Shown one piece after another: positions 2,494 to 51,051 of a DNA stretch of 64,000 bases. The stretch lies in NCBI RefSeq assembly GCF_003334305.1, contig NZ_QOWS01000008.1; one strand, 5' to 3'. Source of the stretch: Escherichia coli (GTDB lineage: Bacteria; Pseudomonadota; Gammaproteobacteria; Enterobacterales; Enterobacteriaceae). Both the position numbers and the translations under genes were made by a program. Below the pieces are notes generated by a model. The model ran no database searches. It had not been told where the DNA came from and was given only the letters and a program-made list of their open reading frames with translations. Numbering within the stretch: the stretch's first letter is position 1; each line of letters starts with the position of its first letter.

Positions 2494-2979
<486 letters not shown>

Positions 2980-3060
2980 TTAATTCAGGATTGTCCAAAA
3001 CTCTACGAGTTTAGTTTGACATTTAAGTTAAAACGTTTGGCCTTACTTAACGGAGAACCA

Positions 3061-3534
<474 letters not shown>

Positions 3535-3560
3535 TCAAGAAATATACAACGATCCCGCCA

Positions 3561-3848
3561 TCACCAGGCCATCTGGCTGGAGTGCTTAACCGTAAGTCTG
3601 ACGAAATCAGTATAGTCAATGGGAATAATGTCGTTCGAAATTTGACCAGTCAAACCGCGGGCAATAAGGTCTTCGTTCAGGGCATAGACCTTAATGGGGG
3701 CATTACGCAGACTTTCAAGGTAGCGGTTACCGTCAACTGCGGCAGTTACACCATCTTGCAATAATAGCAGTTCGTCGCCCTCACTGAGCAGACGCAGCAG
3801 CGCAGCAAAATCCGTCAGCCAGGGTGAACGATGTAATGTGTGCAGCAT
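3561..3848 (-). CDS. tusB: Sulfur relay protein TusB
   Basis: 95-aa [24 protein letters not shown]...; last gene of the yheO-tusDCB cluster upstream of rpsL. Confidence 0.9.
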
Positions 3849-3855
3849 AAACGCC

Positions 3856-4214
3856 TCAAAACCTCAAAATAACATCGTAGTTGGCGAGTTCGCGGCGTAA
3901 GGCATCTGCTTCGAGCGGCGTGGCTTCGACAACAAAGGGTGTCTGCGGATCTAACCCGCGTTCGCGCAGTGAAGCCGCACAAACCCAGCACTGTTCAATG
4001 TCGTACAGACCCAACAATTTAAAAGTGGCAATGTAATCACGCGCCAGCACTGCATCGGGCTTTTGTCCTGACAGCAGCTGAAAAACGCCATCAGCGATAA
4101 AGAAGACGGCCAGATCGTCAGTTAATGCGGAAGTTGCCAGTAAAGCATCTAAACCTTCCCGACCAGCAGCTGTACCATGAGGTGCAGTAGAAAAAACAAA
4201 CGCAATTCGTTTCA

Positions 4215-4215
<1 letters not shown>
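3856..4215 (-). CDS. tusC: Sulfur relay protein TusC
   Basis: 119-aa [29 protein letters not shown]...; DsrE/DsrF-like; start overlaps the tusD stop. Confidence 0.9.
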
Positions 4216-5323
<1,108 letters not shown>

Positions 5324-46723: not shown

Positions 46724-47245
46724 TTAGTTGCTTTCCAGCATGTGAATAATCTGGTTTGCAACCACTTTAGCGCTTTGATCATCAGTACGAATGGTCACGT
46801 CGGCAATCTCTTCATACAGCGGATTGCGTTCATTGGCCAACGCTTCCAGAACTTCACGCGGCGGTGTTTCAACGTGCAGCAACGGGCGTTTTTTATCACG
46901 CTGCGTGCGTGCAAGTTGCTTTTCGATGGTCGTTTCAAGATAAACGACAACGCCACGAGCGGAAAGACGGTTACGCGTTTCACGGGATTTCACAGAGCCG
47001 CCGCCAGTAGCCAGCACAATACCCTGTTTCTCGGTCAACTCATTGATGACCTTTTCTTCGCGATCGCGGAAGCCTTCTTCGCCTTCTAAATCGAAAACCC
47101 AGCCCACATCAGCTCCGGTTCGTTTCTCAATCTCTTGATCGGAATCGTAAAATTCCATATTGAGTTGTTGAGCTAACTGGCGCCCAATAGTGCTTTTTCC
47201 GGCACCCATAGGCCCAACCAGAAAGATATTGCGTTTCTCTGCCAT
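46724..47245 (-). CDS. aroK: Shikimate kinase I
   Basis: Conserved start [45 protein letters not shown] (173 aa, ATG at 47243-47245); the ORF track extends 67 codons upstream without support. Confidence 0.93.
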
Positions 47246-47645
47246 TTTTTCGGTACTACTAAGACTATTCGTTAATGATAAACCCGCTTCGCTCAGAGAG
47301 CGCCGCAGGACATGAACTGAAACCTCATAAGATATTGCGAGAGTCAGACTGAAAATTATCTCAATACTCCAGCGGGTTTGGCAACTGAATAAATCACCCA
47401 TCCCTCTGCATATCTGGTCGCTGCAAGCGCGCTGCCTTGCTACCACCGCTCTGGCGATAAATCACCGGGTAAGATTAGCGTAAAAAAGACAGCAAAATGC
47501 CGCCTGAATGATAAATCATCATCATGGAACGCAGGCAGCGAAGAGCACCAACTCTCAAATCGGTACTCCTTGTATGCTAAATACCTGCGCGCGTCAAATA
47601 GATGAAACACGTTCAGCGTAAAAACATTACCGCTTTTACGGCTGT

Positions 47646-48884
47646 TTACTCACTGGAAACCAGTCGTGGCGTGATAAACACCACTAACTCGCGTCGTTCA
47701 TCTTCTTTTCCGTCATGACGAAATAATTGCCCGAACCAGGGAATGTCGCCAAGCAACGGCACGCTATCCTGACCCGATTTATTTTTACGGGTAAAAATGC
47801 CGCCCAGCGCCAACGTTTCTCCGCTTTTGACCTCGACCTGCGTTTCGATCTCCTGCTTATCAATCGCCAGCACTTCGCCATCGGCCTGCTGTAGCACCTG
47901 CCCCGGAACGTTCTGGCTGATGTGTAATTTCAGCCGGATGCGACCTTTTTGTAACACCGTGGGCGTGACCTCCATCCCCAGGACGGCCTCTTTAAATTCC
48001 ACCGACGTCGCGCCACTTTCCCCGCTGGAAACCTGATATGGAATTTCGCTCCCCTGTTTAATACTGGCAGGCTGAAGATGTGAGGCCAGCAGACGCGGAC
48101 TGGCGATAATATCCAGTTGCTGTTTTTGTTCGAGCGCGGAAAGCTCAAGATCCAGCAAACGTCCGTTGATGCGCCCAATGTTAAAACCGACATGCGTTGT
48201 CGCCGTCGCTACGGAGAGGTCGCTACCAAGCGTGGTGACTTGCCCAACACCACCAGCGTGTTGCGCATCGGCCAGCGTCCATTTCACGCCTAACTCACGC
48301 AAACTTTTTTCATTAATGGTGACAATATGCGCCGACAGCTCAACCTGCCCGACCGGAAGATCCATTTGCGCTACCCACTGTTCAAGCGCGCTTAACGCCG
48401 TTTTGTTATCTCGTAGCAAAAGGCGATTGGTGCGTTTATCGACGGTCATACTCCCTTTGGCACTCAGTAGCTTCTCCCCCGCTTTCGCCAGTTCTCCCGC
48501 GTCGGCGTATTGCAGGGTTATACTGCGATTTTCCAGCGGCAGATTTGCCTGCGCCCGCGCCTGCTCCGCCTCCTGGCGGGCGATATTGTCATTCTGCCAG
48601 GCAATAGAATGCACTGAGAGAATGTTGCCCTCCTGGCGCGTTATCAGCCCGGCGCTTTTCACTACAGTTTGTAGTGCCTGCTTCCAGGGAACATCTGTTA
48701 GATGTAACGACACCGTACCGCTGACGTCTGGCGACACGACCAGGTTCAACTTCTCCTGTTCAGCCAGCGCCTGCAACACCTGAGCCACCGGAACGTCATC
48801 CACCATCAGCGTCACTTTTTGCGGCTTTGCCGCCTGTACGCCGGGTATCAGCATCAACAGTAGTGCGGCTATCCATTGCTTCAT
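47646..48884 (-). CDS. hofQ: Secretin-family outer membrane channel HofQ (DNA uptake / type IV pilus-like system)
   Basis: 412-aa ORF with signal peptide MKQWIAALLLMLIPGVQA and C-terminal secretin domain (...GGIFTRKNKSGQDSVPLLGDIPWFGQLF...). Confidence 0.93.
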   Translation of the reverse strand: MKQWIAALLLMLIPGVQAAKPQKVTLMVDDVPVAQVLQALAEQEKLNLVVSPDVSGTVSLHLTDVPWKQALQTVVKSAGLITRQEGNILSVHSIAWQNDNIARQEAEQARAQANLPLENRSITLQYADAGELAKAGEKLLSAKGSMTVDKRTNRLLLRDNKTALSALEQWVAQMDLPVGQVELSAHIVTINEKSLRELGVKWTLADAQHAGGVGQVTTLGSDLSVATATTHVGFNIGRINGRLLDLELSALEQKQQLDIIASPRLLASHLQPASIKQGSEIPYQVSSGESGATSVEFKEAVLGMEVTPTVLQKGRIRLKLHISQNVPGQVLQQADGEVLAIDKQEIETQVEVKSGETLALGGIFTRKNKSGQDSVPLLGDIPWFGQLFRHDGKEDERRELVVFITPRLVSSE

Positions 48885-49200
48885 TTGTATCTCCTTGCCG
48901 TTGCCACAACCATTGTGGCGGTTCGCAGTTTGTCCCGGTACCCAGCGTTAGTACGTCTGGCGTCAGCTGTAAAATTGTCCAGCCGTTTTCCAGCACATCG
49001 TTTTGCTGCACCCGTCGCCATTTCTTTTGCCCGTCTTTTATTACACCGATGATGCGCTCGCCTCGCCCTACCATCCCCTGATAGCGCCACTGGCTAAGTT
49101 CGCTAATCCGGCATAGATCTTCCGGCGGTTTAAAAGGGTCACGCATACCGGTTAAAAGGCACAATGCAATACCTGCCAACAACCAGCGTTTAACCCTCAT
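48796..49200 (-). CDS. hofP: Pilus assembly-like protein HofP
   Basis: Conserved 134-aa form MRVKRWLLAGIALCLLTGMRDPFKPPEDL... from the ATG at 49198-49200; its 3' end overlaps the hofQ start by 89 bp. Confidence 0.8.
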   Translation of the reverse strand: MRVKRWLLAGIALCLLTGMRDPFKPPEDLCRISELSQWRYQGMVGRGERIIGVIKDGQKKWRRVQQNDVLENGWTILQLTPDVLTLGTGTNCEPPQWLWQRQGDTNEAMDSRTTVDADTRRTGGKAAKSDADGG

Positions 49201-49630
49201 GCGGCGTCTCCAGTTGTAGCGTGAACAAAAGATCATCACCTTCCACGCTTAACGAAAAACGGCTCACGCTGACGTTGCGCTCTGCCAGCCGTGTAAATGC
49301 CGACGGCACTGCTTCCCACAGCGTTTTCAACGCCAACTCGCCTCCCTGCGCGGATGGATGCCAGGAAACCAGTTGCGCGCCGGATAACTGAAAATCCAGT
49401 GGCGAAAAGGGCAGCGTTTTTTCCTCGCTGAAGGGAGTGGTGTCTACCAGGCGATACAGTGCGGCCCACTGCTGGTGATGACTTGCCCGTAGTCGAATTA
49501 ATGCGTCGCGCTCTTCATGGTGTGTCGATGATAGAAAAATGAGCGTAACTAACATCAGCAACCAGAATGCCCAGCAAAGCTGGCGGAGGCGGGGTGATGT
49601 GGCGAACCACCAGTCAAAGAACATGTTCAT
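49190..49630 (-). CDS. hofO: Pilus assembly-like protein HofO
   Basis: 146-aa ORF MNMFFDWWFATSPRLRQLCWAFWLLMLVTLIFL... Confidence 0.85.
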   Translation of the reverse strand: MNMFFDWWFATSPRLRQLCWAFWLLMLVTLIFLSSTHHEERDALIRLRASHHQQWAALYRLVDTTPFSEEKTLPFSPLDFQLSGAQLVSWHPSAQGGELALKTLWEAVPSAFTRLAERNVSVSRFSLSVEGDDLLFTLQLETPHEG

Positions 49631-50153: not shown

Positions 50154-50932
50154 CAGTACGCCTTCCCAAGCGCCAGCCCCAGCGCGATGGCAAAGTCTCC
50201 ACCTGGCGGCGGTAGCGGCGGCTGACGAACAGAAACGGCCTCCCAGGGATCAAATCCCCCTTCGCCACATATCGCGACGCTTTCGGGATCAACGGATAAC
50301 GCTGCCGCCAGCTCCTTCGCGCTAGTCATCCCCACCGCCAGTTTGCGCCCCCAGCGACAGCGTGTCGCCCACAGCCACTGTTCGTTATCACGCCAGGCCA
50401 GACATTGCTGATGAGAAGGTAAAAAAGGCAGGAATTGCTGTAATGCACTGGCATCCGGGGTGATCGCGCTCACATGAACACGCAACCTTTCTGCCAGAGT
50501 AAGTAGCGTTGCCAGCTCTTTGCTTTGCGCGGCAGTCACGTTATAGGCGGGGCTGAGTGAGTCTTCGCTGTAATCGAAGCGCAGGGAGTCCGGATCCATA
50601 TCCAGCTCGCGGGCCATCGTCCCTGACAGCCAGGCCGTTTGCTCCCGCTCACCAAGGGACATCGACGGGCGCGGAAATGACCGCTGTAATGTGCGACTGG
50701 CGGGAAACGCCAACATAATGTGATGACGCTGCGGCAGTTCGCGACTCCACGGTAACAACGTTTTAGCCAGCTGCTGCGCATCAACAATCCGCCCATCTTT
50801 GATAATGTCGTTCTCCAGCGGCAACCGCCACCAGCGTTGCAAAAAGCATTCTTTTGCTCCCCGCACGATCGCAACCGCTACCGCTTCTTGCTGTTGTAAA
50901 TGCAAACCAATTTGCCAGATCTTAAATGCCAT
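50153..50932 (-). CDS. hofM: Pilus assembly-like protein HofM (PilM-like)
   Basis: Conserved start MAFKIWQIGLHLQQQEAVAVAIVRGAKE... (259 aa, ATG at 50930-50932); the ORF track adds 9 upstream codons. Confidence 0.85.
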   Translation of the reverse strand: MAFKIWQIGLHLQQQEAVAVAIVRGAKECFLQRWWRLPLENDIIKDGRIVDAQQLAKTLLPWSRELPQRHHIMLAFPASRTLQRSFPRPSMSLGEREQTAWLSGTMARELDMDPDSLRFDYSEDSLSPAYNVTAAQSKELATLLTLAERLRVHVSAITPDASALQQFLPFLPSHQQCLAWRDNEQWLWATRCRWGRKLAVGMTSAKELAAALSVDPESVAICGEGGFDPWEAVSVRQPPLPPPGGDFAIALGLALGKAY

Positions 50933-51051
50933 TGTGATGATCTCCTTATCACCCGTCACTCTGACGGGTATATCAATGCGTCTGGCTTGCCTTTATACTA
51001 CCGCGCGTTTGTTTATAAACTGCCCAAATGAAACTAAATGGGAAATTTCCA

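Follow-up and report, generated by a model that had tools for sequence, protein, structure and literature searches.

Introduction

Overlaps between adjacent genes have been catalogued on a large scale, and a large published survey recognised no real co-directional overlap above 60 bp. The overlap that it did accept joins two genuine genes of the same strand, is kept across enterobacterial genera with a length specific to each genus, and was deemed real since both proteins equal their orthologs in length. The hofP/hofQ pair of Escherichia coli shares these properties and is deemed real on the same ground. It differs in being longer (89 nt, with a range of 56–98 nt), beyond the limit of the survey, and in that hofQ begins with a signal peptide, which offers a mechanistic explanation of the length. 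The pair is absent from the survey's supplementary lists and, being conserved and well supported, runs counter to the published view that all co-directional overlaps of more than 60 bp are misannotations.

A second described type is the canonical coupled overlap, in which the two genes meet in an ATGA or share 1 nt. As in that type, hofP and hofQ form a unidirectional pair within one operon and encode subunits of one envelope complex; the type is itself found in the same operon, at hofM/hofN (1 nt), and in some relatives hofP and hofQ meet in an ATGA. In E. coli, by contrast, hofP stops 89 nt past the hofQ start, and ribosomes most likely initiate hofQ at its own Shine–Dalgarno (SD) sequence.

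With respect to the proteins, the closest systems are pilP/pilQ and gspC/gspD. The core of HofP adopts the HR fold of PilP and GspC, HofQ belongs with the PilQ-type secretins (TIGR02515), and HofP is encoded directly upstream of the secretin in an operon whose gene order, M-N-O-P-Q, is that of pilMNOPQ. For PilP(COG3168)–HofQ(COG4796) pairs across prokaryotes, the leading distance value in a published table is 13, taken here as about +13 nt; this typical spacing implies that the enterobacterial HofP family (PF10748) is distinctive in its long overlap and its C-terminal tail. Unlike PilP, HofP would seem to lack a conserved lipobox cysteine of the PilP type according to our reading of the alignment, in which the Cys of the E. 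coli N-terminal sequence (...GIALC14LLTGMRDPF) is unconserved and the Leu at −1 is off consensus.

Overlaps that arise by overprinting or by 3′ extension are best studied in viruses. As in those cases, the newer layer, here the HofP tail, is hydrophilic, of low complexity and disordered by prediction, and it overprints a substitution-tolerant part of the older gene, here the hofQ signal peptide. Unlike the viral cases, hofP/hofQ belongs to a chromosomal bacterial operon, comprises only 29 codons, and its added segment bears no sign of a gained function.

Results

hofP and hofQ share 89 nt in two reading frames

We analysed a window of 64,000 nt from E. coli (contig NZ_QOWS01000008.1). Its minus strand carries hofQ (47646..48884), which encodes an outer-membrane secretin for DNA uptake of 412 aa, and hofP (48796..49200), which encodes a PilP-like protein of the HofMNOPQ machinery of 134 aa; both assignments rest on the open reading frame, the RefSeq annotation and a family match (NCBIfam NF007851 for HofQ and PF10748 for HofP). 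The stop codon of hofP is the TGA at 48798..48796 on the minus strand. Direct reading of the sequence reveals that the segment common to both genes (48796..48884, minus strand) specifies residues 1–30 of HofQ together with residues 106–134 and the stop of HofP. Relative to hofP, hofQ is read one base further downstream: the hofP codon for Asn106 supplies, as its second base, the A of the hofQ ATG, and position 1 of each hofP codon is position 3 of a hofQ codon.

An overlap of 89 nt that is dual-coded over about 30 codons had been described in the earlier note, and both the sequence and RefSeq bear this out, an annotation error being ruled out. The lengths that it gave for the other overlaps of the cluster also hold: 11 nt for hofO/hofP (49190..49200), 17 nt for hofN/hofO (49614..49630) and 1 nt for hofM/hofN (50153). 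Identical coordinates appear in the RefSeq/PGAP annotation of E. coli (hofP 2701–3105 and hofQ 3017–4255 in locus L001, and likewise in L002), the K-12 pair is entered at −89 in a published gene-pair table, and the hofPQ region is found in 5424 of 5426 complete E. coli genomes at an identity of at least 95%. The overlap itself is therefore already known, in that it is present in every E. coli annotation; a literature search on hofP/hofQ or yrfA found no paper on it.

With regard to the points raised by Palleja et al. 2008, hofQ has no 5′ extension relative to its orthologs and hofP has no anomalous 3′ extension relative to its own. Nor are the two a single frameshifted gene, HofP (PF10748, PilP fold) and HofQ (a complete secretin) being members of distinct families. 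In our assessment, hofP/hofQ is probably a genuine and anciently conserved same-strand overlap in which hofP reads past the hofQ start, with a length largely set by the genetic code, independent initiation of hofQ and a mostly tolerated tail that has acquired some constraint.

The hof operon requires induction by Sxy/CRP and is silent without Sxy (PMC3330819). A search for a CRP-S site upstream of hofM (TGCGA-N6-TCGCA, at most 2 mismatches) yielded no match in 50930–51030, and matches across the window were below the number expected by chance.

hofQ starts at the annotated ATG

The earlier note had considered start-site ambiguity for the secretin, a proposal that the data reject. The ATG at 48884 is the first start codon past the in-frame stop at 48950 and the sole start that yields a signal peptide, the encoded N-terminus being MKQWIAALLLMLIPGVQA. 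It is preceded at a distance of 6 nt by the SD sequence AAGGAG (48891..48896, minus strand), which lies inside the HofP codons Gln102-Gly103-Asp104 and is predicted to be unpaired. HofQ matches the model NF007851, 'DNA uptake porin HofQ', over residues 1–412 of 412 with 855.8 bits (cut-off 598), and TIGR02515 (PilQ subfamily) with 448.9 bits. Moreover, the same start, SD and signal peptide occur in 52 other loci, in which a GGAG or AAGGA motif occupies the equivalent position before hofQ.

If the true start lay past the hofP stop instead, the overlap would be the most common sort of annotation artefact and there would be no dual coding. We give this next to no credence, since initiation at any in-frame codon downstream of 48884 would cost HofQ part or the whole of its signal peptide, which a secretin of the outer membrane requires, and no such codon is preceded by an SD. 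Within the overlap, the in-frame candidates (48857, 48854, 48815, 48806 and 48803) leave a shortened signal peptide; past the hofP stop, the earliest start is a GTG at 48788, already inside the mature N0 domain. The conservation of the 48884 start with its SD and signal peptide, and the match to the curated model of HofQ, which begins at residue 1, weigh against the artefact in the same way.

The genetic code largely accounts for the length of the overlap

Each codon in the hofP frame is composed of position 3 of one hofQ codon and positions 1–2 of the following one. A stop in the hofP frame (TAA, TAG or TGA) demands a hofQ codon ending in T and, next to it, a codon beginning with AA, AG or GA, that is, one for Lys, Asn, Ser (AGY), Arg (AGR), Asp or Glu. 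Within codons 1–18 of HofQ, which encode its hydrophobic signal peptide (48831..48884, minus strand), only Lys2 qualifies. Because this sole eligible codon follows ATG, which ends in G, hofP is unable to stop anywhere across residues 1–18, a result obtained from the sequence and from codon resampling. The stop is instead supplied by the codons GAT GAC of HofQ Asp29-Asp30 (48795..48800, minus strand), within the conserved N0 motif VTLMVDDV, where T-G-A (48798..48796) is read in the hofP frame, as established from the sequence and from comparison across loci.

We quantified this effect with a null model in which the amino acids of HofQ were fixed and synonymous codons were resampled. Under this model, a stop is impossible before nt 59, and the probabilities are 0.11 for 59 nt, 0.23 for 86 nt, 0.44 for 89 nt and 0.22 for 125 nt or more. 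The genetic code largely dictates the length of the overlap, and 89 nt is the most likely outcome; given a probability of 0.44 for exactly this value under the HofQ sequence, the length by itself needs no special explanation. Such a simple code-level cause, the lack of a reachable stop across a signal peptide, is a possible genome-wide null model for long overlaps.

The strong SD of hofQ is embedded in the last conserved codons of the HofP core, and hofP has no stop ahead of the hofQ start. The hofP frame runs on through the signal-peptide codons to the TGA provided by Asp29-Asp30 at the start of N0, and the PilP-like core of HofP thereby gains a hydrophilic tail of 29 residues. We propose that, on this basis, initiation of hofQ would proceed independently on its own SD and not via termination–reinitiation. 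The tail would be a largely tolerated, disordered and non-essential appendage, which may have gained some constraint once it was fixed, strongest at its last residues and stop; this constraint would in turn slow synonymous change in the first 29 codons of hofQ.

Termination–reinitiation coupling of hofQ to hofP is unlikely

Tight translational coupling, which the earlier note had read from the long overlap, is a poor fit in the sense of termination–reinitiation, with the stop 89 nt past the hofQ start and an SD of its own that is predicted to be unpaired. That the overlap exists for tight coupling of hofQ to hofP by this route would agree with the arrangement of the operon, in which all five hof genes overlap (by 1, 17, 11 and 89 nt) and the products form one complex, a class in which short-overlap coupling is enriched (PMC10666635). 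In E. coli reporters carrying native pairs, however, reinitiation drops steeply with distance, 80–100% being lost at 38 nt, and the stop-to-start range taken there as predictive of coupling is −8 to +10 nt (PMC10666635). The hofP stop lies at −89 nt relative to the hofQ start, outside this range, the comparison being an extrapolation, to a stop that follows the start, from reporters in which the stop precedes it.

The near-consensus SD of hofQ and its AUG are unpaired in both the MFE and the centroid folds, and this prediction implies that no unmasking by upstream ribosomes would be needed. Folding of the RNA around the hofQ ribosome-binding site gave no significant structure (z = −1.35), and for this reason we set aside the idea that the site stays masked until ribosomes translate hofP. 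Furthermore, the lineages in which hofP and hofQ meet in an ATGA display what a coupling geometry looks like at this junction. Termination–reinitiation at −89 nt is unlikely, and it is very improbable that the overlap exists for its sake. A weaker form of coupling may nevertheless operate, in which ribosomes translating hofP prevent the site from closing or make ribosomes more abundant locally.

The overlap encodes a predicted disordered tail of HofP

HofP matches PF10748 over residues 3–134 (E 3.7e-80). According to AlphaFold2 and Foldseek, its folded core, approximately residues 30–103 (48892..49113, minus strand), is a beta domain of the PilP/GspC HR type, and it is free of hofQ coding overlap. 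The AlphaFold2 model has a pLDDT of 90–95 at residues 31–100 and places its strands within residues 39–100. The top Foldseek matches of the core were PilP from Myxococcus, Neisseria and Pseudomonas and the GspC HR domain bound to GspD; the profile match to PilP 3jc8 is weak (E 0.002).

The C-terminal tail, residues 106–134 (NEAMDSRTTVDADTRRTGGKAAKSDADGG; 48799..48885, minus strand), is predicted to be disordered, with a pLDDT below 50 at residues 106–128. Its composition arises because NTN or NCN codons of hofQ are read as NNT or NNC in the hofP frame. Most representatives of the HofP family have the tail and a few are missing it, and the C-terminus reads ...GG or ...GGG in many genera and ...GRR in Klebsiella. 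The tail would seem to be dispensable, as three ATGA lineages do without it.

The long overlap is conserved across enteric bacteria

The main comparison comprised 54 loci, namely the window and 53 species loci. The search of contigs by alignment of the HofP core reached Enterobacteriaceae only, and more distant loci were added singly; Yersiniaceae, Pasteurellaceae (comD/comE), Vibrio and Pseudomonas lie outside the set, and the origin of the long overlap is bounded only by the published distance table. An overlap of 89 nt was found in 35 loci, followed by 92 nt (6 loci), 98 nt (6), 86 nt (2), 80 nt (2), 4 nt (2) and 140 nt (1, with the start as called). Overlaps of 80–98 nt thus occupy 51 of the 54 loci, and the relation in which the hofQ frame is the hofP frame plus one is kept in 52. 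Among the more distant loci, all of which lie within mrcA/hofMNOPQ/aroKB synteny, the overlap measures 92 nt in Klebsiella, 92 nt in Cronobacter, 68 nt in Cedecea, 56–65 nt in Pantoea and 59–77 nt in three further loci. Overlaps of 56–98 nt with the same frame relation are accordingly present in about 60 loci other than the window, from Enterobacteriaceae and Erwiniaceae. In most Enterobacteriaceae, hofP stops at the same GAT-GAx, and HofP orthologs of 125–138 aa with equivalent tails are found in Escherichia, Salmonella, Citrobacter, Enterobacter, Klebsiella, Cronobacter, Pantoea and others.

Three lineages (L046, L057 and L061) depart from this pattern, in that hofP ends in a 4-nt ATGA overlap with a tail of 3 residues while hofP and hofQ are otherwise intact. 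A single-base indel in a run of A, such as the extra A in the spacer of the Leclercia locus L057, converts the form of roughly 90 nt into that of 4 nt and back. The ease of this switch would suit a recent 3′ extension of hofP, confined to this strain or species, through a frameshift, a lost stop or a sequencing error (category iii of Palleja), in which case the tail would be a degenerate by-product of a decaying operon. Signs of decay exist: frameshifted or truncated HofP clusters occur in E. coli, one hofP is annotated as a pseudogene, and hofP or hofQ is disrupted in E. albertii and C. koseri. However, a protein of about 125–138 aa with a tail of 20–35 residues is the majority state across PF10748, down to about 20–25% identity in Enterobacteriaceae and Erwiniaceae, and the long form is carried by the same 5424 of 5426 E. 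coli genomes. A state that is in the majority across the family and near-universal in E. coli is old and stable and does not reflect a recent lesion, and we therefore regard a recent extension as highly improbable.

A programmed frameshift that fuses HofP to HofQ was also considered and set aside: the junction has no slippery motif, and the hybrids in the database (for example, P0084, P0032 and P0072) look like sporadic frameshift variants.

Synonymous change in hofQ is reduced up to the hofP stop

Over codons 2–29 of hofQ, dS was 0.215 compared with a mean of 0.49 elsewhere in the gene, and none of the 354 other windows of 28 codons was as low (minimum 0.355). In successive blocks of 7 codons, dS was 0.24, 0.28, 0.25 and 0.11 and then 0.54 and 0.49, with the jump at the hofP stop. 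Third-position diversity at codons 26–29 averaged 0.14, whereas all 218 other 4-codon windows had at least 0.26; as the sequences are phylogenetically related, these window ranks for dS and diversity do not amount to formal P values. Asp29 is encoded by GAT in 51 of 54 loci, compared with 66% GAT elsewhere in hofQ, and the synonymous diversity of this codon is 0.04. The halving of synonymous divergence, with recovery exactly at the hofP stop, suggests some dual-coding constraint on these grounds of sequence comparison, and the synonymous sites of hofQ would be constrained exactly as far as that stop.

In contrast, an OLGenie-like dNN/dNS estimate was 1.33 in the overlap compared with 1.15–1.35 in control regions whose alternative frame is non-coding, in a test of low power over 28 codons; this value within the control range gives no sign of selection on the amino acids of the HofP tail. 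The two selection signals conflict, dS being reduced and dNN/dNS unremarkable.

Lowered dS near gene starts is a general effect. In the same loci, dS for codons 2–29 of aroK was 0.00; with its 5′ end itself so extremely constrained, part of the dip in hofQ may be unrelated to hofP. For the same reason, aroK could not serve as a calibrating control for 5′-end constraint and only signals the confound. A gapless upstream control coding for hofP only was likewise discarded, as insertions and deletions that distinguish the genera raise its apparent diversity at every codon position.

These data bear on whether the dual coding is actively selected, with a functional HofP tail or at least a functional C-terminal ...A-G-G end and exact stop point. 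Candidate roles would be contact with HofQ or with the periplasmic assembly, or the setting of the HofP:HofQ ratio by hofP ribosomes that transiently occlude the hofQ start. Selection of this kind would account for the more than 2-fold depletion of hofQ-synonymous changes in the overlap with its sharp edge at the hofP stop, for the status of codons 26–29 as the most synonymously conserved 4-codon window of hofQ, and for the near-fixation of GAT at Asp29; the maintenance of the arrangement across two families and the ...GG or ...GGG end of HofP in many genera also point this way. Against this, disorder is predicted for the tail, whose sequence shows little conservation beyond the part imposed by HofQ, the end differs in Klebsiella, the stop lies elsewhere in more distant taxa, and three lineages lack the tail entirely. 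Moreover, dNN/dNS is no different from that of the controls, the null model already makes 89 nt the likeliest length, and general synonymous constraint at the 5′ ends of genes may contribute. On this evidence, active selection for dual coding is a tentative proposal and rather unlikely, and we favour a mostly tolerated tail with some acquired constraint.

A broader version, to which we assign a somewhat lower likelihood still, holds that selection maintains hofP/hofQ as a bona fide co-directional overlap of some 90 nt and that the pair exemplifies a general rule, the HofP tail (especially its conserved ...AGG end and stop position) having a role in HofP–HofQ assembly or in the expression ratio. 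If this were true, 5′ ends that encode signal peptides or transmembrane helices could not hold stops in the frame one base upstream, and it is at such 5′ ends that genes of one strand would be able to overlap at length and remain so, the upstream protein gaining a new disordered tail at its C-terminus.

As it stands, the overlap is a tidy but minor curiosity. It has a practical side for work in which hofP or hofQ is recoded, deleted or tagged, in that the first 30 codons of hofQ also encode HofP; the hofQ::kan allele of the Keio type from DNA-uptake work is one case affected by these shared codons.

The hofP/hofQ overlap is real and already annotated

Within the mrcA / hofMNOPQ / aroK-aroB region of the window, the hof genes lie on the minus strand, and hofP (49200..48796, minus, 134 aa) shares 89 nt with hofQ (48884..47646, minus, 412 aa) at 48796..48884 (minus). 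The 89-nt overlap claimed in the earlier note was borne out by the window sequence, and the same value is found in the PGAP annotation and in a K-12 table of all unidirectional gene pairs (b3392 hofP / b3391 hofQ, -89; PMC10666635 supplement); the smaller hof overlaps that it listed (11, 17 and 1 nt) were likewise correct, the pairs upstream being tabulated there as -11, -17 and -1 (PMC10666635 supplement). PGAP coordinates in one compared E. coli locus (L001; hofP 2701-3105, hofQ 3017-4255) are exact equivalents of those in the window, as are those in a second (L002). A 901-nt junction query matched all 5426 of 5426 complete E. coli genomes, with at least 80% of its length and at least 95% identity in 5424. 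As a fact, the overlap is already known, annotated and tabulated, and its novelty is low.

Given that long co-directional overlaps are usually artefacts, we tested both ends. Palleja et al. examined 715 co-directional overlaps above 60 bp and accepted none as real, blaming a mispredicted downstream start for 57% of them; the longest overlap accepted was holD/rimI, at 32-56 bp, and hofP/hofQ is absent from the lists of that survey (PMC2478687). In the hofQ frame, ATG 48884 is the first ATG/GTG/TTG after an in-frame stop at 48950, follows an AAGGAG motif after a gap of 6 nt, and opens a protein whose residues 1-412 of 412 match the NCBI HofQ model. Start-site ambiguity, which had been proposed for the secretin, was rejected on these grounds together with the signal peptide, and the start at 48884 is secure. 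Candidate starts within the overlap (48857, 48854, 48815, 48806 and 48803) are without a Shine-Dalgarno sequence (SD) and cut the signal peptide MKQWIAALLLMLIPGVQA; the first start past the hofP stop, GTG 48788, falls in the mature N0 domain. hofP simply ends where its frame first meets a stop, and comparison with orthologs shows nothing anomalous about that end. By the standards of the 2008 survey (Palleja et al.), the overlap qualifies, and hofP/hofQ is a clean case, conserved among relatives, that breaks the rule of no real co-directional overlap above 60 bp, adding a simple genetic-code reason for its length and a measurable synonymous-site footprint.

The long overlap is conserved among enterobacterial relatives

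Each species was represented by a single genome in a scan that used the HofP core alone as query, a choice that avoids bias from the C-terminal tail; the scan recovered 55 loci from Escherichia, Salmonella, Citrobacter, Enterobacter, Lelliottia, Huaxiibacter, Trabulsiella, Pseudenterobacter and Leclercia. To place the hofQ starts we used the SD, the signal peptide and how far each start lies from the conserved N0 motif V-T-L-x-V-D-D/E; 54 loci were analysed, comprising the window and 53 of the 55, with the disrupted L011 and L024 left out. The overlap measured 89 nt in 35 of the 54 loci, 92 nt in six, 98 nt in six, 86 nt in two, 80 nt in two, 4 nt in two and 140 nt in one whose start call was not checked. 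The frame relation was identical in 52 of 54 loci, and TGA was the hofP stop in 51 of 54, mostly arising from the GAT-GAx codons of an Asp-Asp/Glu pair.

An exhaustive profile search yielded 124 HofP family representatives, with named members including Klebsiella, Phytobacter, Cronobacter, Siccibacter, Franconibacter, Atlantibacter, Cedecea, Pantoea and Erwinia; most carry a hydrophilic tail of 20-35 residues after the conserved C..W.W..G core end, and a few a tail of just 1-6 residues. Synteny and frame relation were the same in all distant loci fetched, with overlaps of 92 nt in Klebsiella and Cronobacter, 68 nt in Cedecea, 56-65 nt in Pantoea and 59-77 nt in three further loci, the hofP stop varying in position just past the signal peptide. 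For generic PilP-secretin pairs across prokaryotes the leading tabulated distance is 13, taken as a typical spacing of about +13 nt, so the long overlap seems to be a peculiarity of the enterobacterial HofP family.

The genetic code largely accounts for the overlap length

The hofQ ATG opens on base 2 of hofP codon Asn106, so that hofP codon position 1 is hofQ codon position 3, and HofQ residues 1-30 are co-encoded with HofP residues 106-134 (NEAMDSRTTVDADTRRTGGKAAKSDADGG) and the TGA stop. Each hofP-frame codon comprises position 3 of one hofQ codon and positions 1-2 of the following one; a stop (T-AA, T-AG or T-GA) thus needs a hofQ codon starting with AA, AG or GA after one ending in T. Codons beginning in this way encode Lys, Asn, Ser, Arg, Asp or Glu, and since the hydrophobic core of the signal peptide lacks these residues, the hofP frame cannot close there under any codon usage. 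Before hofQ codon 31, E. coli hofP has chances to stop at Ala19-Lys20 (GCT), Val28-Asp29 (GTT) and Asp29-Asp30 (GAT), and no others. When the HofQ amino-acid sequence was fixed and synonymous codons were resampled, the probability of an overlap was 0 below 59 nt, 0.11 at 59 nt, 0.23 at 86 nt, 0.44 at 89 nt and 0.22 at 125 nt or more. The observed 89 nt is the modal neutral outcome, and in our reading neither the existence nor the length of the overlap needs a selective explanation. Hydrophobic NTN/NCN codons of hofQ are read as NNT/NNC in hofP, giving a tail of Asp, Thr, Ser, Ala, Gly, Arg and Val.

Evidence for dual-coding constraint is mixed

When 47 long-form hofQ genes were aligned by codon, the mean diversity at third positions of synonymous codons was 0.14 for codons 26-29 (L, M/V, V, D), compared with 0.48 for the gene as a whole; all 218 other four-codon windows scored at least 0.26. 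GAT encodes Asp29 in 51 of 54 loci, compared with 66% GAT elsewhere in hofQ. Among intra-genus pairs, dS was 0.215 at hofQ codons 2-29 versus 0.49 elsewhere, below all 354 other 28-codon windows; by seven-codon block it ran 0.24, 0.28, 0.25 and 0.11, then 0.54 and 0.49, the rise coinciding with the hofP stop.

Against such constraint, an OLGenie-like dNN/dNS was 1.33 in the overlap versus 1.15-1.35 in stretches with no gene in the alternative frame, no hofP-frame periodicity was detected in the signal-peptide part of the overlap, and HofP ends in ...GRR rather than ...GG in Klebsiella. Moreover, other forces can restrain synonymous change at the 5′ ends of genes, and dS at aroK codons 2-29 was 0.00 in the same loci. 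We read the data as some dual-coding constraint, felt most at the hofP stop and the few codons just before it.

The hofQ Ile5 codon (48872..48870) is the rare ATA in nearly all of the 41 of 47 loci with Ile there (third-position diversity 0.10), which could stem from HofP-frame Asp-Ser/Asn residues or from a 5′-end mRNA effect.

Tight translational coupling is unlikely

The near-consensus hofQ SD, AAGGAG (48891..48896), lies inside HofP codons Gln102-Gly103-Asp104, and that part of HofP is therefore also under nucleotide-level constraint. These are among the last conserved HofP-core codons (R-Q/E-G-D). In the predicted local RNA fold, the hofQ SD and AUG are unpaired, and its stability is not unusual (z = -1.35). 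With reporters for native E. coli pairs, termination-reinitiation drops steeply with distance, 80-100% being lost at +38 nt, and -8 to +10 nt is the range taken as predictive of coupling (PMC10666635). Tight coupling, the other implication drawn in the earlier note, is unlikely in the usual sense, the stop lying outside this range at 89 nt past the start; extrapolating from stops upstream of the start, termination-reinitiation would not fit such a geometry. We infer that hofQ is probably initiated independently of hofP. Ribosomes translating hofP must cross the hofQ start site, and this passage could raise or lower hofQ expression.

Sxy-dependent DNA uptake in E. coli requires HofQ (PMC3330819), and changing the first 30 hofQ codons in constructs changes HofP too.

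HofP tail and neighbouring genes

An AlphaFold2 model of HofP (50 homologs) gave pLDDT 90-95 at residues 31-100, with beta strands predicted between residues 39 and 100, and below 50 at residues 106-128, essentially the overlap-encoded segment. The core structure matches PilP of Myxococcus, Neisseria and Pseudomonas and the GspC HR domain bound to GspD; the profile match to PilP is weak (E 0.002), and the Pfam HofP model covers residues 3-134. In three lineages, Leclercia UBA7405 (L057), a MAG (L046) and the locus of family representative P0088 (L061), hofP ends in ...K-K-stop or R-K-stop with an ATGA overlap, both genes being otherwise intact, which suggests that the tail is dispensable at least there. 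Set against their long-form relatives, the switch is explained by a single additional base in the run of A between the hofQ SD and ATG, and only one homopolymer indel thus separates the roughly 90-nt and ATGA architectures. The segment in question, SD included, is 48885..48896 in the window and about 2775-2797 (L057), 1195-1217 (L046) and 2118-2140 (L061). Some database HofP proteins switch to the hofQ frame mid-tail (P0084, P0032 and P0072; e.g. ...GAKMMRWISLLFLLLPALAAAK); they appear to be isolated frameshift variants or mistakes in assembly rather than a programmed fusion.

In some strains the hof operon is decaying. E. albertii NBRC 107761 (L024 2501-2905) has an in-frame stop at hofP codon 34, C. 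koseri NCTC10786 (L011 2800-2900) a hofQ frameshift inside the overlap, and E. coli FDAARGOS_1059 (L003 1700-2118) a hofP annotated as frameshifted; many E. coli HofP clusters in the protein collection are truncated or frameshifted.

Downstream, a 400-nt non-coding spacer (47246..47645) with terminator-like hairpins at 47642..47629 and 47505..47487 (minus) separates hofQ from aroK (47245..46724, minus), whose start is 47245 in RefSeq versus an upstream GTG at 47446 in the mechanical ORF list. Compared in 28 loci among L004-L055, aroK codons 2-29 had zero synonymous differences among intra-genus Enterobacteriaceae pairs, and later codons had dS of 0.06-0.12, about a quarter of the 0.49 that hofQ shows across those loci; the 5′ synonymous constraint of aroK is very strong.
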